Source: a virus. Taken from it: a stretch of 64,000 nt of DNA. Below the pieces are notes generated by a model. That model searched no databases. It saw nothing but the letters and a program-made list of their open reading frames with translations, and had not been told where the DNA came from. Where the stretch lies: UHGV virus genome UHGV-0382128. One strand, 5' to 3'. This document shows positions 24,563 to 53,210 of this stretch, in pieces (the stretch's first letter is position 1; each line of letters starts with the position of its first letter). The position numbers and the translations under genes are program-made.

Positions 24563-24629
24563 TTTAATTACAGGAGGAACTATGTTTATGGACGTAGTCC
24601 TCCATTCTTTTTTATTTTAAGGATACGTG

Positions 24630-25022
24630 ATGGCGATCAGTGTTAAAAATGTGCGTGACCGAATCACCAACGTAGAGAACCAAATGGCAACTGGCCCACG
24701 TGTTGATCCGCAAGTTGCGTCGAAAGCACATAATGCTGCTGATTCATTTTCAGGTTGGACACCCGGTCGATTAGATTGTGGAGGTAGCTGTAGCTGGACG
24801 TGCTCAAACGGTTGTACGCATGGTTGTACGAGTTGTTCAGGTACATGTACATCGGTGTGCGTAGGAAGCTGTTCCTCTGCGTGTGGTAATCAATGCAGTG
24901 GTTGTAGCGGAACGTGTTCTGGTGGTTGTTCAGGATGTAGCGGGACTTGTAGTGGGGGATGTGCTGGACGTTGTTCCTCGGGGTGTAGCGGTTCTTGTGC
25001 AGGTGGTTGTTCTAACCCATAA
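24630..25022 (+). CDS. Cys/Ser/Gly-rich precursor-like protein 1 (leader plus (C-x2-3)n core, about 22 Cys)
   Basis: Cys-free N-terminal about 50 aa then CGGSCSWTCSNGCTHGCTSCSGTC...; leader and junction (HY(D/N)C.G.CSW.CS) shared with two downstream paralogs; next gene is a radical SAM enzyme. Confidence 0.6.
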   Translation: MAISVKNVRDRITNVENQMATGPRVDPQVASKAHNAADSFSGWTPGRLDCGGSCSWTCSNGCTHGCTSCSGTCTSVCVGSCSSACGNQCSGCSGTCSGGCSGCSGTCSGGCAGRCSSGCSGSCAGGCSNP

Positions 25023-25041: not shown

Positions 25042-25956
25042 ATGGAAGAACTTACTAGACCGACGGTATCCGATAAGCTCTACAGTAATCCGAGAACGTT
25101 AAACGTGATTACAACATCCAAATGTAATCTGGACTGTAGCTTCTGCGGCGGAGCCTATTACATGCATAGAGAGGATACAACCGCAGAAGTACAAAAGGAA
25201 AGTATTATCGAGGCGCTGGAAAATAACCCGACTATCACAAATATCCAATGGTCAGGGGGCGAACCATTACTTGCCACGCGTAAAATTGATACCCTTATAG
25301 AAGAGATAAGGGAGAAGTATCCTCGTTGCGAACATTACCTGTATACCAATGGTTTAAAAATGCGTAAATCGCATCTACCGTTGTTAAAGGGTTTTGATAG
25401 TATCTTTTTTAGCATGGATGGATTCAAAGAATCAGAGCGTCCGTTCATGCGGATTATCGAAGAAAAACAATACGAGGTTTTGGAGACAATTTACGAATTG
25501 AAAAATATTCGTACTTGGGCGGTTTTGACGCGCGAGCGTATTGGGGATAAACGTTGGTACGAAGATATAATTGCGTTACATAACCACATTTACCATTATG
25601 GTTTTTGTGAGATGTCGCTGGTTTTGGACAAAAACATGCCAAAACCGTTATCTCCCGATCACGTTATGAACTTTATTTACGGGTATTTTAGAATTCAGGA
25701 GAATATAGAAAGACTGAATTCGTCCAATCGAAGCGAATGTGCGTTTACGCTAAATGCGTTATTTGATGAACCCTGTAACACATGTAGTCGTTGTTTTCGC
25801 ATTGAGTCTGACGGTGCCCAGAACCAAGTAAAGAACGTTGAAATCGTAACGCAACACGGCTGTAGTGACTTGGCCAGAAAGGTTGGATTAGATGCTTACG
25901 ACTATATACGTCGTGTGGTAGGGGCTAAGAATAGAGTCTCAGAAAAACTACGATAA
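25042..25956 (+). CDS. radical SAM enzyme (Cx3Cx2C; extra C-terminal Cys cluster), paralog 1
   Basis: TSKCNLDCSFCGG motif; GGEPLL glycine-rich motif; C-terminal Cys cluster (C..C.TC.RC...C) suggesting an auxiliary Fe-S domain. Confidence 0.75.
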   Translation: MEELTRPTVSDKLYSNPRTLNVITTSKCNLDCSFCGGAYYMHREDTTAEVQKESIIEALENNPTITNIQWSGGEPLLATRKIDTLIEEIREKYPRCEHYLYTNGLKMRKSHLPLLKGFDSIFFSMDGFKESERPFMRIIEEKQYEVLETIYELKNIRTWAVLTRERIGDKRWYEDIIALHNHIYHYGFCEMSLVLDKNMPKPLSPDHVMNFIYGYFRIQENIERLNSSNRSECAFTLNALFDEPCNTCSRCFRIESDGAQNQVKNVEIVTQHGCSDLARKVGLDAYDYIRRVVGAKNRVSEKLR

Positions 25957-26014: not shown

Positions 26015-26413
26015 ATGGCGATTGGTTTATCTTCTTTAAAGGCCCGGCTAGATAACATAGACTCTACTGCATTAAAAAATACAGGTGCGGTGCAGAACTA
26101 TATTCGTGGTAAAGCCACTAATAATAGCGATCTGTTTGGAGGACAGCCGAGAAATCACTATGACTGCGGAGGTAGCTGTAGCTGGACGTGCTCAAGTTGT
26201 TCGGGCGGCTGTACCGGCAACGCCTCCGGCGGCTGCGGTTCTTCCTGTTCAGCGAACTGTGTTTCAGGATGTAGTACAGGTTGCACAGGTTGTAGCAGTA
26301 CCTGCTCAGGAGGGTGCACAGGTAATTGCTCGGGCGGTTGTTCAAGTAGTTGCACCGGAACATGTTCAGGTTCATGTCGAGGCGGATGTCAGCAATCGTG
26401 TACTGGAAGATAA
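26015..26413 (+). CDS. Cys/Ser/Gly-rich precursor-like protein 2
   Basis: Leader MAIGLSSLKARLDNID..., junction HYDCGGSCSWTCSS, core rich in C-x3-C; 28-nt block identical to precursor 1 (24780-24807 = 26168-26195). Confidence 0.6.
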   Translation: MAIGLSSLKARLDNIDSTALKNTGAVQNYIRGKATNNSDLFGGQPRNHYDCGGSCSWTCSSCSGGCTGNASGGCGSSCSANCVSGCSTGCTGCSSTCSGGCTGNCSGGCSSSCTGTCSGSCRGGCQQSCTGR

Positions 26414-26416
26414 GAA

Positions 26417-27083
26417 ATGATAAGTCTTAAAAACATACGCGACAGATTAGTGACGGCGGAGGGATATATCACCACCGCTAATGCAAACAACTATATTGCA
26501 AACCAAGGAACGGTTTCCTCAACCAACAATCTCGCAGGATTACCTTTAAGTCATTATAATTGTAATGGCGGATGTAGTTGGTCGTGCAGCGGTAGCTGTA
26601 GTAAGGGGGCGGGGGGGGGTAAGTAAGCCCTCTAGCGGTGGTTCTACGCCAACCCCTTCAAGACCAACCTACGACAACAAAGCCGTTGTTTATGTTGAGT
26701 CTAAGCTACACGCTAAAGATACTGTTCGTATCAATTTCTCTACTGGGGCTGTCTTTATTCAATGCGTAACGTCAACCGGTAGAGAGAAACCGATAAGGGT
26801 CTTTAAATCGTTACTGTCTGGAAAGTCCTACGCCTACCCTCAAGTTGCAATGGGTAATGGTATCACTGTTAATTTTACAGACGCGGCTAGTTTTAAGATA
26901 GACTCTATCGGTAATGCATCTTCTGCTTCTATCTCATTAGAAGTATTAAGTAATTCCGGCGGAAGCATGGCGATTACGCAGCAACCGAGTAAATCAAACG
27001 GCTTTACTGCAGAATTTGAAGTTACCGGCAGGCAATGGCGTGGCGGGTTCTATACCTTGAACGTCAGATTGACCGTAAAATAA
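26417..27083 (+). CDS. Cys-rich precursor-like module 3 apparently fused to a C-terminal domain; reading frame interrupted at a G-tract (26605-26619)
   Basis: ORF 26417..26626 (leader plus short core ...HYNCNGGCSWSCSGSCSKGAGGGK*) and ORF 26565..27083 join into one frame if the G9 run is 8 or 11 long, continuing into a Pro/Ser/Thr linker (SKPSSGGSTPTPSRPT) and a domain of about 150 aa. Confidence 0.45.
26605..26619 (+). repeat. homopolymeric tract GGGGGCGGGGGGGGG inside coding sequence
   Basis: G5-C-G9 counted directly; coincides with the frame change between ORFs 26417..26626 and 26565..27083. Confidence 0.9.
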
Positions 27084-27095
27084 TTGGAGTAATCA

Positions 27096-27983
27096 ATGAA
27101 AAACGATTTGCATTTAGCCTATAAAACAATTTTCAACCACCCACTTCATATTTCTTCCCCCGATTCAATACGCGCTCATTTGGAAGATAAAGTTCGTTTG
27201 TTAACCCAGTTACCTGGCGAATGGCCCAAAGTGCGTGGTCGTTTTTTTACCGATCGCAATAACTATTCAGTAGAAAACACTTTTAAAATACGCGATCTGA
27301 CAGCAGAAAGCGTAGTGGTGTTTACCGGTGATTCAGATTTACGCGGTAAATTGGTTGACGGTAAATATTTCTTTAGTGACGGTATTCTGAATAATTCTGT
27401 AGATTTGGAATTGTTCTTTACGCCATTTAAAGAGTTGAATGCGAAGCCTGTAGCACGACGTTGGTGGTCTCCAGACTATCTTGGTTCATTCCCGTACTTT
27501 TATGCCCTGGTTCCTGTAGAAACAAAAAACTATGTTGATACTGAACCGTATATTGAAATAGAAGGTTACGAGGAACTTGGCATCAACTGTTTAGCAGATC
27601 TGATGGCGTACAGTTACAAATTTATGTGGGATCGTGAACGTTCAGTATGGGTTGCCCTTACAGATGAACATGAAATCACAAAACGTATTCGTAAACCATG
27701 GATGCAGCATTTAATTCAAACACGTATTGGTGAACATCCGTCATCGGAAGCAGATTTAGCGAAACTTGTTAGTTTCTTAATGACGAAAGTCACGTTAACT
27801 GATGAAGAAAAAGCGGCAGTGTCGGCGGTATTGGAACGTAACGTAACGTTAGCGGATCTAGAACGTTTAAACGTGCGTTATAAAGACCTTAATCGTATTA
27901 TTGAGGCTTACAATTCACCGTTTGTATTAAAACCTGGAGTTAACGCTTACGACGATCCTTTGTTATCCATTGGCTATATTTAA
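27096..27983 (+). CDS. hypothetical protein (295 aa) inside the radical-SAM cluster
   Basis: GGAG RBS; no recognisable motif; position between precursor 3 and rSAM paralog 2. Confidence 0.55.
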   Translation: MKNDLHLAYKTIFNHPLHISSPDSIRAHLEDKVRLLTQLPGEWPKVRGRFFTDRNNYSVENTFKIRDLTAESVVVFTGDSDLRGKLVDGKYFFSDGILNNSVDLELFFTPFKELNAKPVARRWWSPDYLGSFPYFYALVPVETKNYVDTEPYIEIEGYEELGINCLADLMAYSYKFMWDRERSVWVALTDEHEITKRIRKPWMQHLIQTRIGEHPSSEADLAKLVSFLMTKVTLTDEEKAAVSAVLERNVTLADLERLNVRYKDLNRIIEAYNSPFVLKPGVNAYDDPLLSIGYI

Positions 27984-27989
27984 AAATAG

Positions 27990-28928
27990 ATGGACTCACC
28001 TGCAATGACAACCGACGTAGAGCCAAGGTTATCGAATCGTTTATACAATAAACCCACCGTATTGTCCGTAGTTGCTACATCCAAATGTAATCTGGACTGT
28101 AGCTTCTGCGGCGGAGCCTATTACATGCATCGTGAAGATTCTCCGCGAGAGTTTCAACGTGAACGAATTTTGAAAGCGTTGGCGTCTAACCCAACCATTA
28201 CTGAAATTCAGTGGACTGGCGGTGAACCGCTACTGGCAACTCGAAAGATTGAGGCGTTTGTCGACGAATTAAAAACGATCCGTCCTGAACTCAAACACCA
28301 GATGTTCACGAACGGTTTAAAAATGCGTAAATCGCATCTACCGTTGTTAAAACAATTCGATGGTATATATGTTAGCATCGATGGGTTTAATCTTTCTGAA
28401 CGGCCTTTTAAGCGCTTTATTGATGATAATTGTCATGAAGCGTTAGAAGTAATTTACAGCTTGAATAATGTTAACACCTGGGCTGTTGTTACGAGGGAGA
28501 ATTTATCCAATAAAAGATGGCATGAAGATATCATTCAATTACATACTGCTATCTATCATTACGGTTTTCGTTCCATGTCCTTATTACTAGATAAAAACAT
28601 GCCAAAACCGTTATCTCCCGATCACGTTATGAACTTTATTTACGGGTATTTTAGAATTCAGGAGAATATAGAAAGATTAAACGTTCTAAATTCTAGAGAC
28701 TGCGGTTTTATTGTAAACAGATTCTTCGATCATGCTTGTAATGTCTGTAGCGAAAGTCTCAGGATAGACGCGGACGGGGAAGAAAACCAACTTAAAAATG
28801 TACCAATAACTACAAAAGCAGGGTGTAACCAACTAGCCTCCTCAATAGGTGTAGAAGCTTACGAGTACATTCGTCGTGTAGTGATGGCAGAGCGTAATAG
28901 AGGGGCGGAAAATGAGTCAAGAAAATAG
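27990..28928 (+). CDS. radical SAM enzyme, paralog 2
   Basis: TSKCNLDCSFCGG; three blocks of 100 percent nucleotide identity with rSAM paralog 1 (54, 38 and 84 nt). Confidence 0.75.
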   Translation: MDSPAMTTDVEPRLSNRLYNKPTVLSVVATSKCNLDCSFCGGAYYMHREDSPREFQRERILKALASNPTITEIQWTGGEPLLATRKIEAFVDELKTIRPELKHQMFTNGLKMRKSHLPLLKQFDGIYVSIDGFNLSERPFKRFIDDNCHEALEVIYSLNNVNTWAVVTRENLSNKRWHEDIIQLHTAIYHYGFRSMSLLLDKNMPKPLSPDHVMNFIYGYFRIQENIERLNVLNSRDCGFIVNRFFDHACNVCSESLRIDADGEENQLKNVPITTKAGCNQLASSIGVEAYEYIRRVVMAERNRGAENESRK

Positions 28929-30234: not shown

Positions 30235-30769
30235 ATTCCGTTTTCTGGAAAAATTTTTAGAAACTACAAAATTGTTTGGTTGTTATGTGCAAATTAATGG
30301 TGAAGACTTCACTGACGATGTTAAACGATTATTAATTCGTCACGGAGTAACTGTAGTTATCCCAATGTATTGCACAGAACTCACCGATCTTTCAGTTACA
30401 GAAATTGAGAAACGGAATCCTGGGTTTGAACAACGTGTACTAGATTTTCCACGACATAAAATCGTGCTATTACGCAGGGCCTTGCAAGAACCAAGCGTCG
30501 AATCTATAACAGCATTAGGATTATCCTTTCCGGGCATCACGATTTACGCAATGCGGAATCCAGATTCTACTATCGATGGATTTTACGAGGAACGTGAAGC
30601 GTTCCATGATTTAATTTATCCTGAACTTACCGATGAAGAACGACAAGGATTACACATCGATTGGGATTCTGGTTTTGATAACAAATTTCGCCAAATCGAT
30701 TTTGAATTGTTAATTGAACTGGGTTTAGTTAAAGGGGAAGATGAATGTCTGTTATTGACGAAGGCTTAA
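30197..30769 (+). CDS. hypothetical protein (190 aa), translationally coupled to the rSAM genes
   Basis: Overlaps the previous gene by 38 nt. Confidence 0.5.
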   Translation: MKPILIHNITKRKFRFLEKFLETTKLFGCYVQINGEDFTDDVKRLLIRHGVTVVIPMYCTELTDLSVTEIEKRNPGFEQRVLDFPRHKIVLLRRALQEPSVESITALGLSFPGITIYAMRNPDSTIDGFYEEREAFHDLIYPELTDEERQGLHIDWDSGFDNKFRQIDFELLIELGLVKGEDECLLLTKA

Positions 30770-31419
30770 CGAAAGAGGAAATACGTCAACGTTATTTCTC
30801 ACGAGGGCTTCCAATCGATCGCCACGGTAATTACATGGAACGAATTGGCAACGAGGATCGTGGTCGTGCGGGTTTTTGTGCGCTTCTACACTACAAATTA
30901 ATCGATGGGTTGGAAGATAAGGCCGCAATCGAACAGATGCGTAGTTACGATATGTCGGAGATTGAGGCTAATTTCACTCTACAGAAAGCGAAAGAATTTA
31001 TCGCTGATGTTCTTGAGATTGATTTAGAAGAAATACGAAACAACGTTCGATCAACTGCACGTTATATCTATCAAGATGTTCAGAAAATCATGATAGAGAT
31101 GGAACGTCTTTATGAGGAACAGCGTTATGCACCCATTAAGTTAAATGGGTGTTATTTCCAAACAGACGACGCATCGCGACAGATGTTAAGTCAGTATATT
31201 CAGTCTGAAACCGCCCCGGAATATTGGTTGGATACGTCGAATGCACGAATAGAACCGTTCACGTTGGAACAATGCAAAGAACTGATGGCAGCGATTGTGA
31301 AACGTGATCAGAAATTGCATGGGCAGAAAACCGAGCAGAAAAAAGAGCTTCGGCTTTTAGCCGAGCGGCGTGATTATGATACCATCCGAGCGTACGCTTT
31401 GGAAATGGGGATAAAATAA
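30745..31419 (+). CDS. hypothetical protein (224 aa), last gene of the plus-strand cluster
   Basis: Overlaps the previous gene; followed by a strong terminator. Confidence 0.5.
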   Translation: MSVIDEGLTKEEIRQRYFSRGLPIDRHGNYMERIGNEDRGRAGFCALLHYKLIDGLEDKAAIEQMRSYDMSEIEANFTLQKAKEFIADVLEIDLEEIRNNVRSTARYIYQDVQKIMIEMERLYEEQRYAPIKLNGCYFQTDDASRQMLSQYIQSETAPEYWLDTSNARIEPFTLEQCKELMAAIVKRDQKLHGQKTEQKKELRLLAERRDYDTIRAYALEMGIK

Positions 31420-31468
31420 AAAAGTACCTACCTCCTTTACGGAGGTAGGTAAACTTATTATTTTTTTT
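31415..31468. terminator. bidirectional rho-independent terminator
   Basis: TACCTACCTCC-TTTAC-GGAGGTAGGTA hairpin flanked by A-run and T8 run, between convergent genes. Confidence 0.75.
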
Positions 31469-31490: not shown

Positions 31491-32021
31491 TTAAGCAGTA
31501 AAGCCGTCAAGTTCACCGTCGGTGGTGGCCAGGTCAATACGATTATCAACAACTTTCGGCGTAATTACGAAAGTTGCCATTACACCCGGTTTATAACGGA
31601 GGTTCTTTTCAGTAACGGTACACGTTACCGTACGCAGAGTGACGCTATCGTGTTCGTCTTTCTGGTCTTCGGTGGTGTACTCAACGTCACCAGGTGCGAT
31701 AGAGTCGTCAGGTTTTACTTTATTGATGTAAAACTGTAATCGGTCGCGTAGTTCGTTTTCTCCAGTCCAGAGAGCCAAATCGTCCGTTACCTCAATGCGT
31801 CCGACAACGCCAGGTTCCAGACGATCGTAATGCAGTTCGATTGCGCCTTTAAAATTTTCAGACTCTGTACGTGCGGTCATGGTAACTTTGGTATTTTTAT
31901 CGCCCTTTTCAAGAGCGACAGGTTGACCAAAAGTTACCTCTTTATCAGTGACCTGATGCGGTAGCTCTGTGTTAGCAGCATTATAAAGCGCAACTAACAT
32001 CATCTGGTTAGTAGCTGCCAT
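31491..32021 (-). CDS. small beta-rich protein, member of a 6-copy paralog family (putatively virion or fibre associated)
   Basis: Shares N-terminal pattern and C-terminal GELDGFTA with 32090..32620; weaker similarity to 35297, 35775, 46811 and 53418. Confidence 0.55.
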   Translation of the reverse strand: MAATNQMMLVALYNAANTELPHQVTDKEVTFGQPVALEKGDKNTKVTMTARTESENFKGAIELHYDRLEPGVVGRIEVTDDLALWTGENELRDRLQFYINKVKPDDSIAPGDVEYTTEDQKDEHDSVTLRTVTCTVTEKNLRYKPGVMATFVITPKVVDNRIDLATTDGELDGFTA

Positions 32022-32072: not shown

Positions 32073-32082
32073 CCCCCCCCCC
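32073..32082 (+). repeat. C10 homopolymer (G10 on the coding minus strand), intergenic
   Basis: Counted directly; lies between the stop of 32090..32620 and the RBS of 31491..32021. Confidence 0.9.
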
Positions 32083-42391: not shown

Positions 42392-42401
42392 GGGGGGGGG
42401 G
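42392..42401 (+). repeat. G10 homopolymer (C10 on the coding minus strand), intergenic
   Basis: Counted directly; between the stop of 42416..43258 and the RBS of 41850..42365. Confidence 0.9.
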
Positions 42402-44686: not shown

Positions 44687-46807
44687 TTAAATAACTACCC
44701 AGCTTTTACCATCGGAACCAATCTGCATTAGCGTAATACTTTCATTGGTATCAATGGGTTTGGCAAGACCTTCTGTCCCACTCTTTGGAGTGATGAGAAC
44801 GTTTGAATTTTCCGGTTTAACGGTGATCTTACCAGCCTTATTTGCCACGATCTGAATATTTCTGCCCACGCTATATTCTAGATCAGGAATAGTAAGTTGG
44901 CCGCCACGGTTGGTGGGTGGGAAATACACATAAGACGACACATCTTCCTCAGATAACACTATGCTACCAGAATCACGATTGACCGAGATCTCAAACTTAG
45001 AAATATCGATATCATAGGCAGTAACTTTCGTAATATCCGTCAGAACCAATTCGTTCAAATCGGTCTTAGCTGGACTGTTCGCCAGATCAAATGGAGTACC
45101 ATTCGTACCGTCCAGCACAGGTGTGACTGTGGTTTTATTGGCACCAGGATAAATGATTTCAAGCGTATGCCAGTTATTATCGTACGCACCAAAAGTTCCT
45201 AATTTCGCATTCTGCTTTTTATGATGCATCAGATTAAGATTCTTAGCGTCGGTCTGTAAGAAAAAAGACATTAGGTACGGGTTTGTATCAGCCACACTAG
45301 CGTCAGCAAGTGTAGTACCAGAAGGTAGGTCGGACGCGGAGATACGCCAATAAAGCCCTAAGCCGAAACGATTTTCTGCTAAATCACCTTTTAGTCTAAA
45401 AGTAACGGTCAGTCGTCCACCGTAACGTATCATGTCCGCAGCAGATGTCATTGACTTAGTTACATTCCAAGGTTTCATCGTTACAGCCTTTCTTAATTCG
45501 ACGAAATGCCCGTTTCCATCCTCAGAATCTTGCACGGTTACGTTACAATCAACGATATTGTTCCAACCCTGCCCTTTCAGGGAACCATCTCCACGACGTC
45601 CGTTATAACCCACAGACTCTACTAATGGGGTATAGCTTCTTACCACATTCATATTGTCTTTGAGCTCTTTAGTGTCGTTCTTCGTCAGGAGCATTGCACC
45701 ATTCGCTGTTCTTGATAATATCTCAGCAGCTATTCTCTCTGAGATAATACCGCGTCGTGCCCAAGAACTGAAATGGCTATTCCTTGTTTCAGACGTCCAG
45801 TTTTTATTACTACGGGTGGCAGCACCGTAGTAGGCAGCACCAGCGATATCAGGATCGTCAGTGGGATCATTAGTCGGTACACGTTGGCCATTATCGTCGT
45901 ACATGAATGGAACAAAAAAGATATTTTTTTGTTCATTGTTACGATAATTACCGTATATGGTTTCATATTGAACAGGATATTTTTCCTTCCAATAGTAGGT
46001 AGTGTCCCCGCAGATCCATGGTACTTCGGCGGTGTCGTACTCGGGCATCTGAGAGAGATGGTCAGAGAGATCAGTTCGGAAACGCTCTACCATTGCCATA
46101 AATAACGCTGGTTGTTGTGCGTAACCTACTTTAGTCAGATCATACTCCCCCTGCATCCACACTACAGCCAAGAGTTTATTTTTAGGATTAACGTCCAGAG
46201 CTTTTTTGGTCCGGCTAACTAAATCTTTATAAAGAGGTTTTTCCACCCCCCATACCGATGACGTCGCAGAGGCTCCTGTGGCTTCATCGAAGGTACCTTC
46301 TGCACCACCCGTGAAAGCAGAACCGCCGCGTGCGCAGGGTACTAGTAAGATACCAGCGTTGCTAGGAATATACGGGAGAAGACGCTTCGCGATGTGTAGA
46401 CCTTGACCCACACATCCGTATTCACCTTTGTCCAAATTGGCTTTGGGGTGCGAGAATACGGACATATCTTGCACGTCGTGCAGACAGTGATCCGCTGGAA
46501 TGACGTCGTTATACTTACAATCAGCCCCGTTAGGCGTTACCTTCGCACGGCGCGCCATCTGTTTAATTCGCGGATCGGGAGCGTCCAACGTCGCCGGTAG
46601 AGGCAACCCTTCACCATAACTCATCGCATTAGATTGCCCGGCTATAGGAATCACGAAGTAATACTCCGGCTCCGTCGTGCCCTGAAGTTTTGCAATATCA
46701 ATTTTATATTCTTTTTCTTCCTTAGAAAGAAGAACTAACGCACCTTTGAGATCGCCAGAGAAATTGTCGAGTTCATGGATACGTTTCTTTCCAATTGGCT
46801 GACTCAT
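44687..46807 (-). CDS. tailspike/fibre protein with SGNH (GDSL-type) esterase-like domain
   Basis: GQSNA motif at about residue 56; N-terminal KKRIHELDNFSGDLKGALVLLSKEEKEYK shared with the 1479-aa fibre (KKIRLHDLHPYTGDIGEGVLLFSKDEKDYK), suggesting a common attachment domain. Confidence 0.6.
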   Translation of the reverse strand: MSQPIGKKRIHELDNFSGDLKGALVLLSKEEKEYKIDIAKLQGTTEPEYYFVIPIAGQSNAMSYGEGLPLPATLDAPDPRIKQMARRAKVTPNGADCKYNDVIPADHCLHDVQDMSVFSHPKANLDKGEYGCVGQGLHIAKRLLPYIPSNAGILLVPCARGGSAFTGGAEGTFDEATGASATSSVWGVEKPLYKDLVSRTKKALDVNPKNKLLAVVWMQGEYDLTKVGYAQQPALFMAMVERFRTDLSDHLSQMPEYDTAEVPWICGDTTYYWKEKYPVQYETIYGNYRNNEQKNIFFVPFMYDDNGQRVPTNDPTDDPDIAGAAYYGAATRSNKNWTSETRNSHFSSWARRGIISERIAAEILSRTANGAMLLTKNDTKELKDNMNVVRSYTPLVESVGYNGRRGDGSLKGQGWNNIVDCNVTVQDSEDGNGHFVELRKAVTMKPWNVTKSMTSAADMIRYGGRLTVTFRLKGDLAENRFGLGLYWRISASDLPSGTTLADASVADTNPYLMSFFLQTDAKNLNLMHHKKQNAKLGTFGAYDNNWHTLEIIYPGANKTTVTPVLDGTNGTPFDLANSPAKTDLNELVLTDITKVTAYDIDISKFEISVNRDSGSIVLSEEDVSSYVYFPPTNRGGQLTIPDLEYSVGRNIQIVANKAGKITVKPENSNVLITPKSGTEGLAKPIDTNESITLMQIGSDGKSWVVI

Positions 46808-47377: not shown

Positions 47378-47387
47378 CCCCCCCCCC
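47378..47387 (+). repeat. C10 homopolymer (G10 on the coding minus strand), intergenic
   Basis: Counted directly; follows a 12-bp AT-rich stem-loop (47389-47420) after the stop of 47422..47865. Confidence 0.9.
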
Positions 47388-47421: not shown

Positions 47422-47865
47422 TTAGCTAATTCTCAAATCACGCAGTGCGCCTGTCGATTTCATCACGTTTTGGAACGCGCCACTGATGTTATTAGTCCAG
47501 TAATAATGCTGTCCGTTAATAACCTGCTGATAGGCCAGCGCGCAGGTGTTACCACCTAAATTTACGGTAATGTTAGAGGCTCTGCCTCCTTGTAAGTAAA
47601 CCGCTAAAGTAGGCTTTGCGTTGGCAACTATCGTCGTTAACTGTAACTCAATACCTACTAAAGTTCCCACCCCGCAGTTACCCGCGTTTTGAATGGTTCC
47701 CTGATTTTTCTGGTTTAACGGCCAGCTTGGTCCTACCGCGCCCCATTTCTTACCTAAAGAATCGCTATATGCAGCGGTTGCAATTTTACAGCCCATAGAT
47801 CGTCCCACCATTTGACTCATCATAAAAGGTCTACCCAATCCTAATTTACTACCAGCAGCGCTCAT
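47422..47865 (-). CDS. receptor-binding-like protein, paralog of 48184..48729; true start probably upstream at 47930 but frame broken by a G10 tract
   Basis: Track ORF starts at an internal ATG; an upstream ATG (47930) with AGGAG RBS is followed by 10 G then TAA. With 8 or 11 G the frame reads MGGGVTGSWVGSSAKNETGEQW-MSAAGSKL..., matching the paralog N-terminus MGVASGWVGSSAKAVTGQEW-MSVAGNKL. Confidence 0.55.
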   Translation of the reverse strand: MSAAGSKLGLGRPFMMSQMVGRSMGCKIATAAYSDSLGKKWGAVGPSWPLNQKNQGTIQNAGNCGVGTLVGIELQLTTIVANAKPTLAVYLQGGRASNITVNLGGNTCALAYQQVINGQHYYWTNNISGAFQNVMKSTGALRDLRIS

Positions 47866-47918
47866 CCATTGTTCGCCCGTTTCGTTCTTGGCCGAAGAAC
47901 CGACCCACGAACCGGTTA

Positions 47919-47928
47919 CCCCCCCCCC
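47919..47928 (+). repeat. C10 homopolymer (G10 on the coding strand) directly after the start codon of the receptor-binding-like paralog
   Basis: Counted directly; length determines whether the N-terminal 22 codons are in frame. Confidence 0.9.
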
Positions 47929-47942
47929 ATCGCGATCTCCTG

Positions 47943-48743: not shown

Positions 48744-48771
48744 AAGATAGGGGGATTACTCCCCCTATCTT
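48744..48771 (-). promoter_or_regulatory. intercistronic stem-loop (perfect 12-bp stem) between fibre gene and downstream receptor-binding-like gene
   Basis: AAGATAGGGGGA-GTAA-TCCCCCTATCTT overlapping the fibre stop codon and just upstream of the RBS of 48184..48729. Confidence 0.45.
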
Positions 48772-51700
48772 TAATTCCCCTTGAGTTCTTTAAGCTCTCG
48801 GCGAAGAGACTTCATACCCTCTACTAACAGCGCAATAACGCCATTGTAATTTAGACGTAAACGTTTTTCGCCTGAAATGGCATCGTCGTCCTCGGACACA
48901 AGTTCAGGTAACGCTTCTAAAGCGTCCTGAGCAATTAGACCTACAGAAGTCTGCCAGCCGTCGTCAGGATGCTGAATTTCGTACAAATACCCTGTTAGTA
49001 ACTCTAACCGATCCAAAGCTTTATCCAGCTTCACCAGATTACGTTTGTTACGACGGTCAGAACGAATCTGTACGTCGTTAAACGAACCGTTACCGTTGCC
49101 AGTAACGTTATGTCCAAAGTTTACTTGACCGTTGGAATTATTAAAAGACAACGGACGTAATCCGTTCCAGGAACCCGCTGCGGCTTGTCCGGCATCGGTT
49201 ACTAAGAAATAGGTATTGGCACCATCGTTACGTAAAATAAAACCGTAGGTACCGTAAGCGATTCGAAAATCAGGGTATTTAGTGGCCAATTTACCGTTAA
49301 CGGTTAAATCGCCGCCTATAGTACCGCCCCCCGAAGGTAGTGCACCCACTTCCGCAGCAGTTGGCTTGTTTCTCGTATTGTAAGCACGACGCCAGCCTGG
49401 TGAGTATCCATCGCCGTTAAATACGTAGATAAACTCCGCATTAGTGAGTGCTCCGCCGACGCTCGTCGTTGTGGCGGTCGTTATACGGATCGTGTAGTTG
49501 TTTGTGCTGTTGCCGTTACTAATGACTTCTATAACGGCCCCAGCTAACGGAATGACACCACAACCCGTCTCGCTGTGAGGTATGGACGCACTGGCGGCAT
49601 AAGCCCACGCACAGCGAGCAACCCACGATCTTGTGGTAAATGCGCCGTTATTTTTCAATAACGTCACTAGCTGTGCTGTAGTTATTGCACCGCCATCAGC
49701 GCCAGTTTCTAACCAACCACTAGGTGATGCCGGACAACCTATTTCGGCTGGCCCTAACGATATATTTCTAGTGCCATCAAACGCAATACCATTGATGGTT
49801 CTTGCGGTTTGCAACTTTGTTGCCGTGGCTGCGTTTCCGGTGGTCGACTGATTCCCTGTTTGGTTTACTCCAGGTAAACTGATGTCTTTAGTACCATCAA
49901 AAGCCACGCCACCTATATTTCGCGCAGTCTGGAGCTTAGTCGCTGTCGCCGCATTCCCCGTAGTCGATTGGTTACCGGTTTGGTTTACGCCAGGAAGATT
50001 AACGTCTTTTGTCCCATCGAACACCACACCGCCGATCTTACGTGCGGTTTGTAACTTAGTAGCGGTCGCTGCATTACCTGTCGTATTCTGGTTGCCTTGC
50101 TGGTTAACGCCCGGTAAATTGATGTCACCTGTACCGTCAAAGCTAACGCCTCCGATCCTGCGAGCGGTTTTCAGTTTCGTCGCGGTAGCGGCGTTGCCGG
50201 TAGTATCCTGATTACCTGTGGCATTTACACCAGGAATGCTATCACGGGCAGTATAAACTTGTGCCCAATCTGACCACGGCGCATCAGCAGTATCACGTCG
50301 ACTACGAATATAAACGGGTGCGTGCGCACCGCTCGTCCCCGACCATCCGATTAACAGTTCTCCTTCGCCTAGCGCAGCAGAACCGCCCAAATGCAGTAAG
50401 TTACCATAAGCGGTTGGATAACCGTTATTGTAAACTTCGTACATCTGAATACCGGGTGTACCTTTGTTTGATCCAGTCAGTGCAGTAACACGTCCACGTC
50501 CTACCAACGTGTTGATATTGATGTCTCTAGACCCATCAAATTTCACACCGTTGATGTTTCGAGCCGTTTGTAATTTGGTTGCGGTTCCCGCGTTCCCAGA
50601 GGTGTTTTGATTACCCTGTTGGTTTACACCAGGGAGGCTAATGTCTCCGCTACCGTCGAAACTTACACCGCCGATTAAACGGGCTGTTTTCAGTTTCGTT
50701 GCCGTAGCAGCATTGCCTGTTAACTCACCTGATAACCCTTTTGCAAAGGTCTGTTTTTCTGCCCACGTATGCGCTGCATTCAATACGGGCATCTGGCGGC
50801 TAGTAATAGTACGTTTACCCTTTTCACCAGCGACGCGAACAGCAAAGAAGCGATAGTTAGCAGTAGACACTGTACCACGCCAGACCAACATACTCCGGCC
50901 AGTACCGGTGTCCTCCGACGCCCCTACAAGAATAGTGACCAAGTTACCGTCGATAACACCCCAATCCATTCCCGCAGGAATGTTTTTCATGGTATTCAAT
51001 GGTGTACTTATCATCTGGCCAGGAACGAAGTCGAAGGTTTGCCAGTCTAACGGATCGACCTTAGCAGCAACCCCACCGATCCCTAAAGTCAACGGGAGTG
51101 AATAGGATGTGAAAATTTCTCGCCATTCGCTCCAGGCGTTTCCTGTACGAATTCGTTGGAACTTGCGACCTTTCGAAGTTGCGCCTGTACCGTATGTGGT
51201 ATAATTTTGTTCAACACCTGAACCGTCTAAGCGTAAGGTAACTTCGCAAACACCTAGCAAGGTTGCGCCAGCAGAGTCTGTTAACGGACTGTCTGTAGCC
51301 TCACCGGTAACACTAAAGCGACCCGGTTTAGTTAAGTCGTTAAAGCTACCCTTATAGTAGGCACCGTCTACCTGATACCCAACCTGAATCCAATCTTCCC
51401 ACTGCGGATTAGACGAATCCCAAGTCGCAGTCAAACCACGGACATACATCGTACCACGTCGTGTGGTGTATCGTTGCAACCGTCCGTAAAGACCACCTTC
51501 CATGACTTCTAATACGCCTTGCGCATTACCGCCCTCTTCAGGATAATGTCTGTCGAACACCGCTAACGAACTGGACGAGTTACGCCAGTTACCCATGTGC
51601 TCAGCGCCGCCTAAGGAGTTCAGATCGATCGATGTAGATAACGGACGTACACCGGTAGTTACCATTCTCCACGGTGACCACGGGCCATTAGTTCCGTTCC

Positions 51701-53210
51701 ACGCACCTGACAACATACGGTTGTACACGTTACCATTACGACAGGTAAAACGTTGCGCACCGCTATAGTTACCCGCTTTATACACTTCTAGATAACCTAC
51801 CGCACCGTCTTCCGGGAAGTGTTTTGCTATTGATGCGTTTGTTGATGTCGACTTGGACCATGTTCCTGTGTAATTGGCATCTGGAGCAAATGTGTTAATA
51901 TCAGCATCTGCGGGCATTTCACCACGGAAACGCAGATAGGTATCAGGAGATAGACCAATATTGCGAGCAAAGGTTTCTTTATTGGGGATATCAGCACCGT
52001 TAGAGTTTTTCTGTAACGCAGCGTTCGCTTTATCTACAGTGGCTTTTAATCCCAAGAAATTGATGATATCCGCAGTTGTCCCTTTTGCTAACAAGGTTCT
52101 GGCGGTTTCTGTAAAGTCAGTTAACCCGACTTTATTAGTGCCAGTGAAATAAGGGAGCTTGTTTGCTGCGGTTGTGACTGCGGCAATAGCAGTAAGTAGT
52201 GGACTGATAGGTTGCTTCTGTGCAAGTTTCTCAGTAATCGTTGTTGCGAAGTTAGGGTCATTACCTAACGCCGTAGCTAATTCCGCTAAGGTATCTAACG
52301 TCTCAGGTGAAGAACCAACCAATTCCGCGATAGCAGCACGCACCCAGGCCGTTGTGGAGATGCTCGTGTCATTCGAGTCCTTTGGGGGCGTTGGTGATGT
52401 CGGGTTACCCGTAAAATTCGGCGAATGTTTATCGGCTTTTAACTGTAATTCGTCGTTCAGCTGTTTAACCGTGGACGGTGTGGCAGCCTCCGTCACGGAT
52501 TCGCTAGTCAGGGTATTGTTAAGTTTAACGATACCTTTACCGGTCGTACTAGCGTCAACTAAACCCTGTGCAGCGATTTTCTCCGCACGCAGAGCGGCTG
52601 ACTCCGAGCGTGTAGCTGCGCCTTCTGAGCTTTCTTTATCTTTCGTAACCTGCGCAGCAACCTTCTCCACCGCGCCCTTACTGGCCTCAATTGAAGCCGC
52701 AGTATTTGCGATACTGGTAGCGGTCTGTTGAACCTGTCCGGCCCGTTGCGTAACCGTTTCTGCTTTCTTAGTTACATCAGCCGCTACAGCTGTCACAGAT
52801 TGTTCGCTTGCGGCGACAGCTTGAGCCTTCTCATTTACTGATTGTGAAACAGTATCTACGGCAGTTTTTGCTGCTAAAACTTCAGCGTGTTTTTTGTTAA
52901 CCTCCGCAGTTTTAGTGGCGACGGTTCCCGCTTGCTCATTAACTGTGGAAGCTAAAGTGGTGGTCTGTTGCTTCGCTGTTTCTGCTAAATCTTTAGCTTT
53001 CGTAGCTTCTGTTGCGGACTGTTGTGATTTGGCCGCAGCCGTTTGTGCATCAGCAACCGCACTTCTGACGGTGTCAATGTCCGCAACGATCTCGCGGACG
53101 GGTAACTTATAATCTTTTTCGTCTTTCGAAAAAAGTAAAACGCCTTCACCGATATCCCCGGTGTACGGATGTAAGTCGTGTAAACGTATTTTCTTTACCG
53201 CTTTAGCCAT
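48771..53210 (-). CDS. long tail fibre protein (1479 aa) with tandem about 39-aa repeats and C-terminal intramolecular chaperone (peptidase S74-like) domain
   Basis: C-terminus SDRRNKRNLVKLDKALDRLELLTGYLYEIQHPDDGWQTSVGLIAQDALEALPELVS fits the S74 auto-cleaving chaperone signature; six repeats of GNQ.TTGNAATATKLQTAR.IGGV.FDGT.DI.LPGVNQ; fibre-repeat-like TTGKGIVKLNNTLTSESVTEAATPSTV. Confidence 0.8.
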   Translation of the reverse strand: MAKAVKKIRLHDLHPYTGDIGEGVLLFSKDEKDYKLPVREIVADIDTVRSAVADAQTAAAKSQQSATEATKAKDLAETAKQQTTTLASTVNEQAGTVATKTAEVNKKHAEVLAAKTAVDTVSQSVNEKAQAVAASEQSVTAVAADVTKKAETVTQRAGQVQQTATSIANTAASIEASKGAVEKVAAQVTKDKESSEGAATRSESAALRAEKIAAQGLVDASTTGKGIVKLNNTLTSESVTEAATPSTVKQLNDELQLKADKHSPNFTGNPTSPTPPKDSNDTSISTTAWVRAAIAELVGSSPETLDTLAELATALGNDPNFATTITEKLAQKQPISPLLTAIAAVTTAANKLPYFTGTNKVGLTDFTETARTLLAKGTTADIINFLGLKATVDKANAALQKNSNGADIPNKETFARNIGLSPDTYLRFRGEMPADADINTFAPDANYTGTWSKSTSTNASIAKHFPEDGAVGYLEVYKAGNYSGAQRFTCRNGNVYNRMLSGAWNGTNGPWSPWRMVTTGVRPLSTSIDLNSLGGAEHMGNWRNSSSSLAVFDRHYPEEGGNAQGVLEVMEGGLYGRLQRYTTRRGTMYVRGLTATWDSSNPQWEDWIQVGYQVDGAYYKGSFNDLTKPGRFSVTGEATDSPLTDSAGATLLGVCEVTLRLDGSGVEQNYTTYGTGATSKGRKFQRIRTGNAWSEWREIFTSYSLPLTLGIGGVAAKVDPLDWQTFDFVPGQMISTPLNTMKNIPAGMDWGVIDGNLVTILVGASEDTGTGRSMLVWRGTVSTANYRFFAVRVAGEKGKRTITSRQMPVLNAAHTWAEKQTFAKGLSGELTGNAATATKLKTARLIGGVSFDGSGDISLPGVNQQGNQNTSGNAGTATKLQTARNINGVKFDGSRDININTLVGRGRVTALTGSNKGTPGIQMYEVYNNGYPTAYGNLLHLGGSAALGEGELLIGWSGTSGAHAPVYIRSRRDTADAPWSDWAQVYTARDSIPGVNATGNQDTTGNAATATKLKTARRIGGVSFDGTGDINLPGVNQQGNQNTTGNAATATKLQTARKIGGVVFDGTKDVNLPGVNQTGNQSTTGNAATATKLQTARNIGGVAFDGTKDISLPGVNQTGNQSTTGNAATATKLQTARTINGIAFDGTRNISLGPAEIGCPASPSGWLETGADGGAITTAQLVTLLKNNGAFTTRSWVARCAWAYAASASIPHSETGCGVIPLAGAVIEVISNGNSTNNYTIRITTATTTSVGGALTNAEFIYVFNGDGYSPGWRRAYNTRNKPTAAEVGALPSGGGTIGGDLTVNGKLATKYPDFRIAYGTYGFILRNDGANTYFLVTDAGQAAAGSWNGLRPLSFNNSNGQVNFGHNVTGNGNGSFNDVQIRSDRRNKRNLVKLDKALDRLELLTGYLYEIQHPDDGWQTSVGLIAQDALEALPELVSEDDDAISGEKRLRLNYNGVIALLVEGMKSLRRELKELKGN
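49770..50720 (-). repeat. tandem coding repeats (about 117 nt units) inside the 1479-aa fibre gene
   Basis: Repeating nucleotide units readable on the plus strand (e.g. ...gccgtggctgcgtttccggtggtcgactgattccctgtttggtttac...) corresponding to the protein repeats; two runs separated by a non-repeat segment at about 50230-50500. Confidence 0.7.

Follow-up and report, generated by a model that had tools for sequence, protein, structure and literature searches.

INTRODUCTION

Campylobacter phages (Fletchervirus/Firehammervirus) carry hypermutable polyG tracts that render the expression of their receptor-binding proteins phase-variable (Sorensen 2021, Cell Rep 35:109214, as cited in PMC10579305 and PMC10877375), and in Bifidobacterium breve the genes of sortase-dependent pili undergo replication slippage at intragenic G tracts (Penno et al. 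2022, PMC9187656). Here we analyse a comparable tract in the viral genome UHGV-0382128, of which one stretch of 64,000 nucleotides (nt), hereafter the window, was studied. The tract, G5-C-G9, lies at the 3′ end of a small Cys-rich gene, module 3, and a change of reading frame at this point separates the gene from a downstream segment encoding a C-terminal domain. We propose that its G9 part (the 26611 run) probably works as a hypermutable polyG contingency junction, giving a minor, domain-fused form of a CXXX-repeat module (Cys at each fourth position) that is associated with radical S-adenosylmethionine (SAM) enzymes.

As far as the two citing articles describe the Campylobacter phages, the likeness lies in a lytic phage with several runs of ~9-11 G in or near host-recognition genes, whose length varies within and between stocks and thereby switches frames. 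A second coding run of the window (47919-47928), in a Gp38-like adhesin gene, would be the direct parallel to those tracts. On the same description, the phage studied here differs in its Enterobacteriaceae host and in being a phiKZ/SPN3US-type jumbo phage. The 26611 run differs further: it would select between a short and a C-terminally extended product, with stops in both other frames, rather than switching a whole gene ON or OFF, and its partner is a radical-SAM-associated Cys-repeat peptide and no classical fibre protein.

Frameshift-dependent C-terminal extensions, often Ig-like, are known from phage structural proteins of T3/T7 (gp10B), Lactobacillus phage A2 and Listeria phages A118, A500 and PSA, and a domain transferred by non-homologous recombination may end up in the wrong frame and owe its expression to frameshifting (PMC5009743). 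Similarly, module 3 would have a major short and a minor C-terminally extended product with a domain of beta-sandwich type, and the recombination idea fits the exchanged cassette described below. In the known extensions, however, a fixed ribosomal slippery site works in one direction, whereas here a homopolymer of 9-11 nt is variable in length in the DNA and +1, -1 and 0 relations coexist; nor is the domain recognisable as Ig or as a Pfam family. The B. breve pilus genes also have an intragenic G tract and an out-of-frame consensus gene, together with a range of lengths in the population that permits the full-length surface protein. They lie on a bacterial chromosome and switch a whole pilus subunit ON or OFF, in contrast to the short/long alternative of the phage locus; slippage was told from sequencing error in that study by maximum-depth sequencing (PMC9187656).

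RESULTS

Anatomy of the G run

Positions 26600-26627 of the window consist of AGTAA GGGGG C GGGGGGGGG TAAGTAAG, which module 3 reads as AGT AAG GGG GCG GGG GGG GGT AAG TAA (26600-26626). In module 3 a ~48-amino-acid (aa) N-terminal region, kept in modules 1 and 2, is followed by the Cys core and by SKGAGGGK* (features are collected in Table 1). The earlier note had this open reading frame (ORF) ending inside the run, but the stop codon, TAA 26624-26626, sits 5 nt past the G9 run. The overlapping ORF 26565..27083 is in the +1 frame relative to module 3 and reads ...GGVSKPSSGGSTPTPSRPT (after the run VSKPSSGGSTPTPSRPT) before continuing into beta-rich sequence. The element TAAGTAAG is unchanged in every domain-bearing relative. 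Its TAA at 26620-22 terminates the G10 state and the one at 26624-26 the G9 state, while the third frame, GTA AGT AAG (V S K), leads into the linker.

Rebuilding the locus with altered runs gave short products of 67, 69 and 68 aa for G7, G9 and G10, and fusions of 221 and 222 aa for G8 and G11, respectively. Together with a natural G11 genome (L011, 222 aa), this bears out the prediction that a leader, a short Cys core, a linker and a domain would form one protein with 8 or 11 G. The designation of the gene as a third Cys-rich module was likewise upheld, since the three ORFs (starts at 24627/24630, 26015 and 26417) have phrog_6085 as their common match.

The G9 run is a feature far beyond chance. 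Five runs of 9-10 give the window 14 G/C 8-mers where 0.51 are expected, a number that 0 of 100 shuffles attained; G/C runs of length 7-8 are absent from the window. GGG makes up 17.6% of the Gly codons in its large ORFs.

Table 1. Coordinates of the features of the window that are discussed in the text
Feature	Position (strand)	Remarks
G5-C-G9 tract	26605..26619 (+)	G5 26605-26609, C 26610, G9 26611-26619; the G9 part is hypervariable
Module 3, short form	26417..26626 (+)	69 aa in the G9 state; ends SCSKGAGGGK*
Minimal CXXX-repeat core	26561..26599 (+)	C-NGG-C-SWS-C-SGS-C (Cys 49, 53, 57, 61), as read from the translation
TAAGTAAG after the run	26620..26627 (+)	one TAA in each of the two non-domain frames
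Pro/Ser/Thr/Gly linker SKPSSGGSTPTPSRPT	26622..26669 (+)	differs among relatives; predicted disordered
All-beta domain (sandwich or jelly-roll-like), ~137 aa, and stop codon	26670..27083 (+)	predicted fold; linker and domain lie in the +1 frame
Junction peptides expected from the fused form		GAGG(G)VSK, PSSGGSTPTPSR, PSSGGSTPTPSRPTYDNK; predicted from sequence
Exchanged cassette (Cys core, run, linker, domain, start of next gene)	26530..27130 (+)	~600 bp; window lineage compared with L003 lineage
Module 1, CXXX-repeat protein	24630..25022 (+)	phrog_6085; TIGR04114 20.1 bits (cut-off 20)
Small radical SAM protein, 304 aa	25042..25956 (+)	additional copy between modules 1 and 2; paralogue of 28005..28928
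Module 2, CXXX-repeat protein	26015..26413 (+)	phrog_6085; TIGR04114 22.3 bits (cut-off 20)
Conserved 295-aa protein	27096..27983 (+)	phrog_8030; immediately after module 3 in relatives without the domain
Small radical SAM protein	28005..28928 (+)	called as 307 aa in relatives
Radical SAM peptide maturase, 440 aa	28912..30234 (+)	best NCBIfam match TIGR04115 (CXXX-repeat-target maturase)
Intergenic G10 run	32073-32082 (gene strand)	flanked by two DUF7941 genes; CTCCCCC and T-rich sequence come next, hairpin- or terminator-like
Intergenic G10/C10 run	42392-42401	seen in the window
Intergenic G10/C10 run	47378-47387	upstream of a DUF7941 gene and a SASA-esterase protein
Gp38-like tail-fibre adhesin	47422..47930 (-)	second of two tandem genes; G10 run 47928-47919 within codons 2-5

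Run length among relatives

The domain-carrying relatives form three clusters of a large protein collection and come from isolate assemblies of Salmonella, E. coli and Shigella and from ~225-kb metagenome scaffolds. All run lengths were taken from consensus assemblies. To obtain an unbiased sample, loci of ~225-kb genomes were drawn via the downstream 295-aa gene. The run states in this sample (loci shown plus similar places) were G9 (4+6), G10 (4+3), G11 (1+0; the fused L011, a 225-kb scaffold) and the interrupted G4AG5 (1+2). Length differed between backgrounds that are practically the same: L008 (G10) and L014 (G9) show 0 substitutions over 4.9 kb, L005 (G10) and L007 (G9) a single one over 5.9 kb, and L006 (G4AG5) and L012 (G9) again 0. 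Over 5.9 kb in 11 genomes, indels were confined to the G run and two short intergenic A runs. These A runs, beside the stops of module 1 (25015-25022, A6/A7) and of the 295-aa gene (27981-27987, A5/A6), differ by one A between near-identical genomes.

In a second lineage (L002/L003) the junction reads GGA GCA + G11, likewise +1. A scan of Joint Genome Institute (JGI) metagenomes for GGGGGTAAGTAAGCCCTC returned four chance matches and one true relative (L035), with GGA GCG + G8 and thus again nine G in a row.

Counted by contig, the module 3 ORF (ORF1) ends as GAGGGK* (69 aa) on 37 contigs, as GAGGG* (68 aa) on 38 and as GAGGR* (68 aa) on 43; for the window-type ORF1 this gives a tally of G9 37, G10 38 and G11 1. 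Versions with G7, G8, G12 or G13 were not found in the protein collection. Besides L011, natural fused alleles were P0030, P0031 and P0038 (222 aa, one contig each), and the domain otherwise appears there as fragments of 172, 96 or 77 aa, according to the open frame, on varying numbers of contigs. The in-frame state thus accounts for 1/21 loci of the unbiased sample (binomial against 1/3, p = 0.002) and for 1/76 by contig count; contigs are not independent, and p-values here and below are indicative only. Both out-of-frame states are equally common and so look equivalent, which suggests that a constitutively fused genotype is disfavoured.

The possibility raised at the outset of a homopolymer sequencing error has to be weighed against these numbers. 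According to this explanation the true gene would be a continuous ORF of 221/222 aa and the G9 of the window a miscall or an assembly artefact. Short-read chemistry is known to be weak at polyG, the run coincides with a break in one assembly, and every long G run examined varies between assemblies. However, out-of-frame lengths prevail in dozens of independent assemblies from various projects and assemblers, and the same frame offset recurs in the diverged lineage with a different run (GCA + G11), whose flanking genes are synonymously saturated. Further, the G4AG5 runs are substitutions and not length miscalls, and the double stop in TAAGTAAG, along with conserved stand-alone 68-aa homologues, marks the short product as a real protein. 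A one-off error was thus rejected, and we give the artefact as a whole next to no credence. Among the three alternatives named in the earlier note (error, frameshifting or transcriptional slippage, and a phase-variable switch between a short precursor and a domain-fused form), the switch is best supported, with run length varying across backgrounds that differ by 0-1 substitution per 5 kb.

Short form in relatives and exchange of the cassette

Module 3 was found in 50 GenBank phage records, and six phages from three genera were inspected: JN03, SPN3US, SPAsTU and pEa_SNUABM_29 (Seoulvirus), Asesino (Erskinevirus) and pEa_SNUABM_4 (Machinavirus). In 6/6 it is a stand-alone 68-aa ORF with the conserved 295-aa gene beginning 13-27 nt downstream, and the extra domain was present in none of the six. 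The C-terminus reads GAGNR* in JN03 and Asesino, the two in which it was read. At the position of the window's G run JN03 has GGA GCG GGG AAT CGA TAA; since this junction lines up with the run, the latter lies exactly at the 5′ junction of an insertion of ~460 bp. Judged by these phages, the short form of module 3 is ancestral and conserved.

In the GenBank relatives the Cys-rich modules are mostly unannotated, or wrong-frame or antisense ORFs have been called over their GC-rich Cys/Gly repeats, as at L030 4154-4489 (SPN3US_0166), L001 9543-9878 (JN03 QNI20864) and L016 920-1504 (Asesino gp184-186). Hence virion proteomics against those annotations would have missed the modules.

We observed that the cassette comprising core, run, linker, domain and the start of the next gene is 80-93% identical between the window lineage and the L003 lineage, against 55-70% for the flanks. 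The flanking genes are saturated at synonymous sites, with 0.11 to 0.38 nonsynonymous substitutions per site (dN). A cassette so much more alike than its saturated flanks indicates that the core-run-domain unit moved between lineages and was retained.

Other inserts occupy the same place. In L047 (2184-2682, corresponding to 26600-27095 of the window; P0040, on 24 contigs or more) an unrelated ORF of ~150 aa follows module 3 in the +1 frame. Its junction reads GGC GGA GGG GGG AGG GAT, with GGAGG 7 nt ahead of GTG, so that this insert may initiate on its own. L049 carries a 23-aa in-frame extension. By comparison of the sequences, the site after module 3 appears to be an insertion hot spot.

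Selection, start and fold of the C-terminal domain

Linker and domain together span 459 nt in 15/15 sequences, with 0 stops and 0 indels. Between the two lineages the ratio of nonsynonymous to synonymous substitution rates (dN/dS) is 0.075-0.12 in the fold and 0.20 in the linker, at a dS of ~0.6 (up to 0.67). Purifying selection acts on the domain, with dN/dS about 0.08-0.2.

These values bear on the idea of a decaying remnant, in which an ancestral in-frame fusion was frameshifted and left the domain as a young pseudogene. Consensus genomes that are almost always out of frame would suit it, as would a within-lineage ratio of nonsynonymous to synonymous polymorphism (pN/pS) of 0.22, above that of the neighbouring genes. 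Yet dN/dS is 0.075 over a dS of 0.61 with the frame intact in all 15 sequences, the cassette was exchanged between lineages and then kept, and the G run persists against codon bias. Decay is thus highly improbable.

An alternative without any role for the G run in expression would have a moron inserted after module 3: the domain would be a small gene by itself, translated from its own start, either ATG 26565 or an internal or non-canonical one. ORF 26565..27083 is indeed present in the G9 state, and the different insert of L047 has a plausible start of the GGAGG-N7-GTG type. In the G9 state ATG 26565 is the only upstream start; it is formed by Asn-Gly codons of module 3, no Shine-Dalgarno site was found ahead of it, and it is replaced by AAC GGT in L035. 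In the G10 state, as common as G9, the domain frame is open for just 6 codons upstream and offers no start. The overlap is constrained in the module 3 frame only (2/19 residues differ there, against 8/19 in the other frame). Initiation at the next in-frame Met, which falls halfway through the fold, would split the domain in two, and a Pro/Ser/Thr/Gly linker makes an implausible N-terminus. Independent initiation at ATG 26565 was therefore rejected, on the missing Shine-Dalgarno, the start that is not conserved and its absence from the G10 state. The domain has no usable start of its own and could not be translated alone, and an independent gene is very unlikely. Between module 3 and the domain the + strand showed neither promoter nor terminator; among the module and radical SAM genes the sole + strand promoter-like match is weak and lies at the extreme end of the domain ORF (27057-27084), and there is no terminator-like site.

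Searches for relatives of the domain were negative: tblastn against 50,697 GenBank phages gave no match, protein and DNA patterns did not find it in IMG/VR, Pfam, NCBIfam and PHROGs contain no family for it, and no PDB sequence reached an E-value below 1. An AlphaFold model, computed from a 13-row alignment, shows an all-beta fold of 10 strands preceded by an 18-residue disordered linker. The mean predicted local distance difference test score (pLDDT) is 66.7, with residues 1-18 below 50, and the predicted template modelling score (pTM) is 0.64. The alignment included remote repeat units of ~100 aa from uncharacterised secreted proteins with the common motif QQPxxxNGFTA...Y.L. On this model we call the domain of a probable beta-sandwich type and nothing more specific; it did not prove to be a member of the Ig-like or known carbohydrate-binding phage decoration domains.

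A Gp38-like adhesin and other G/C runs

Besides the 26611 run the window has four further G/C10 runs. The one at 47919-47928 lies at the 5′ end of an adhesin gene: a Shine-Dalgarno site and start codon, AGGAG-N7-ATG (ATG at 47930-47928), are followed by the G10 run, opened by the G of the ATG, and then by TAA, so that the window encodes only MGGG* (OFF). A run of 11 or 8 would bring the ATG in frame with ORF 47422..47865 and give a product of 169/168 aa. From residue 2 on, the restored protein is 59% identical over 170 aa (E 3e-71) to the Gp38-type adhesin of Shigella phage 75/02 Stx. The Pfam domain Gp38_N is present in ON alleles, while the truncated window ORF covers only its positions 21-40; the 147-aa adhesin stub had no exact match when looked up. 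Upstream of the gene is the fibre gene 48771..53210(-), which carries Phage_fiber_2, Gp34_trimer and Peptidase_S74. This fibre gene encodes 1479 aa in most near-identical scaffolds and 1439 aa in three, owing to an in-frame indel of 120 nt in the C-terminal part. Like T-even-type Gp38 adhesins, the ORF is thus located downstream of a long tail fibre, carries Gp38_N and resembles an annotated Stx-phage adhesin; unlike them, there are two tandem Gp38-like genes, the second with polyG in codons 2-5 and OFF in the window.

In ten ~225-kb scaffolds the run after the adhesin ATG was G7, G8, G9 or G10 and differed between identical backgrounds. The gene was ON in 3/10 scaffolds shown and in 8/24 when similar places were included, a frequency that differs from that of the module 3 fusion (Fisher p = 0.025). 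The 47919-47928 run thus looks like a second coding polyG switch, acting on a Gp38-type adhesin.

The remaining three runs are intergenic. In relatives the run 32073-82 was G10 in 7/10, G9 in 1/10 and G11 in 2/10, and the run 47378-87 was G9 in 4, G10 in 3 and G11 in 2. Each has a DUF7941 gene ~50 nt downstream, and one of these genes is followed by that of a SASA-esterase/DUF6645 protein (44687..46807). The intergenic G10/C10 runs may serve as regulatory tracts subject to phase variation. In JN03 the syntenic 25 kb contain no G/C run of 7 or longer, which makes the polyG runs a trait of the window lineage.

Proposed replication slippage and possible recoding at the RNA level

The 26611 locus unites what is expected of a contingency locus: an over-represented long run at a coding junction, whose length varies in close relatives and toggles an intact, selected ORF. 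In the mechanism that we propose, slipped-strand mispairing during phage DNA replication would alter run length. In two of three frames translation would halt at a TAA of TAAGTAAG; since both off frames end there, both would yield a short module (68 or 69 aa) like the ancestral one. In the third frame (G8 or G11) the linker would join module 3 to the domain (221/222 aa). With consensus genomes mostly out of frame, the fusion would be a minor product of the in-frame minority of genome copies, mixed into the burst, and such an output could suffice to maintain purifying selection on the domain. Slippage of RNA polymerase or of ribosomes at this run could add to the fusion, or even dominate. PhiKZ-like phages come with RNA polymerases of their own. 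We take replication slippage, and not slippage at the RNA level, to be the presumable main route. The domain may act in host binding or as a surface module, displayed by a virion-associated peptide that a radical SAM enzyme has modified.

In a pure RNA-level recoding scheme, by contrast, the out-of-frame genome would be the intended state, the fusion would arise in each infection from a small, constant share of transcripts (by RNA polymerase slippage on the G run) or of ribosomes, and the G9/G10 polymorphism would be a near-neutral by-product. Ribosomes could slip by +1 on GGG_GGG_GGU in the G9 state and by -1 in the G10 state, since tRNA-Gly can re-pair on the G run. If the short module has to stay the major product, rare in-frame genomes and equally common G9 and G10 are to be expected, and purifying selection on a domain out of frame in nearly all genomes is in keeping with this scheme. 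AAGGGGG just upstream is Shine-Dalgarno-like, and such an element is situated upstream of the prfB +1 frameshift site. The local RNA fold beats shuffles (z = -2.5), though modestly and dominated by the G run pairing with GCCCUC, and the region is nearly invariant. Runs of at least 9 identical bases allow transcriptional slippage in bacteria, and the G9 run has this length, but the bacterial transcriptional slippage sites on record are A/T runs (PMC5009743).

Other observations fit the recoding scheme poorly. A dedicated ribosomal signal has a fixed direction, yet +1 (G9; GCA + G11), -1 (G10) and 0 (G11) occur among near-identical genomes, and no conserved downstream stimulator was found. Also, the adhesin run of the same phage acts as a plain DNA ON/OFF switch that is ON in one third. 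Because the direction needed changes between identical genomes, a dedicated frameshift signal appears unlikely. Recoding as the principal explanation is improbable in our judgement, if by no means negligible. The two accounts are not exclusive: recoding is compatible with a contingency switch, and transcriptional or ribosomal slippage alongside the DNA switch is a live contributor.

Several findings weigh against the contingency switch. The fused in-frame state is rare among the sampled genomes, and a sub-lineage ending in GAGGR*, with an interrupted run that P0004 suggests to be G7AG2, is widespread (43 contigs); the switch may be dispensable or mostly off. Assembly GCA_013957665.1 ends exactly at the run, and polyG is error-prone in short-read sequencing. 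The intergenic runs at 32073 and 47378, taken as controls, are equally variable (G9 to G11 each), so that polymorphism is generic to long G runs and not peculiar to the 26611 site. Finally, within the lineage no other segment of the cluster is as polymorphic as the domain (pooled pN/pS 0.22, against 0 to 0.04 for the radical SAM genes), a value that fits relaxed constraint, part-time expression or a role in host interaction.

Paralogues, radical SAM genes and phage lineage

Modules 1, 2 and 3 have in common the ~48-aa N-terminal region and the Cys at each fourth position. Module 3 aligns to phrog_6085 with E 8e-25, over profile positions 2-66 only, and has no match to TIGR04114 ('Cxxx repeat radical SAM target'), though its core is CxxxCxxxCxxxC, with only four Cys. 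The extra radical SAM gene 25042..25956 is missing from JN03, SPN3US and the L003 lineage. The 440-aa enzyme matches TIGR04115 with E 3.4e-34 and 118.9 bits, below the 350-bit cut-off, which leaves it outside the equivalog by the NCBI criterion. The locus resembles the TIGR04114/TIGR04115 systems in its small proteins with Cys every fourth position beside radical SAM peptide maturases; it differs in the low-scoring maturase, the phage tail-gene context and the conserved 48-aa N-terminal region. We know of no demonstration of the chemistry for either the TIGR04114/TIGR04115 systems or the phage modules.

Upstream of the modules a 1728-aa ORF corresponds to SPN3US gp168, a tail protein resembling phiKZ gp131 at the baseplate periphery (PMC5105663). 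The window belongs to a phiKZ/SPN3US-type jumbo phage. Its only megablast match among GenBank phages is Salmonella phage JN03 (Seoulvirus), with 75% identity over one gene, that of the large radical SAM enzyme, and the ~225-kb lineage is absent from the GenBank phage collection searched. Near-complete contigs of 220-230 kb occur in many isolate assemblies of Salmonella, E. coli and Shigella, and many metagenome assemblies likewise have the lineage among their top-numbered scaffolds (labels VATA22-2, VALL22-1, YERS23-1 and AUGU21-1).

Between genes 30745..31419 and 31491..32021 there is a strong hairpin (~31420-31455), TACCTACCTCC-loop-GGAGGTAGGTA, followed by T7. Its 5-nt loop is inverted (GTAAA vs TTTAC) in some near-identical genomes (L020 and L026 versus others).

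DISCUSSION

The 26611 run most likely belongs to a wider polyG strategy in the host-recognition genes of this phage. In the widest form of this idea, SPN3US-like phages would put radical-SAM-crosslinked CXXX-repeat peptides in the baseplate/fibre apparatus, and in the gut-associated ~225-kb lineage a mobile cassette of Cys core, polyG, linker and beta-sandwich would stochastically give a minority of them a host- or mucus-binding domain. This would be one arm of a multi-locus polyG system, with the Gp38-like adhesin and the G10 runs upstream of the DUF7941/esterase modules, and host recognition would become diverse within one burst. We put this forward tentatively and consider it rather doubtful. 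If true, it would provide the first link of maturation of the type seen in ribosomally synthesized and post-translationally modified peptides (RiPPs) to phase-variable host recognition by phages, and the first polyG contingency system in an enterobacterial phage.

A practical consequence concerns gene annotation. Gene callers split or truncate such genes, as illustrated by the domain fragments of 172, 96 and 77 aa and the 147-aa adhesin stub, and place wrong-frame ORFs over the Cys-rich modules of GenBank relatives. If the switch is real, a 'clonal' lysate would be mixed in its host-recognition proteins, which bears on phage therapy and on tests of host range.

The conserved trio of CXXX-repeat peptides and the radical SAM enzymes in the SPN3US-like tail region constitute an unexplored system, and the optional domain fusion may serve as a handle for localising the peptides. 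Should the contingency switch hold, homopolymer switching, among phages so far documented only for Campylobacter phages in the literature searched, would also operate in a widespread enterobacterial jumbo phage.

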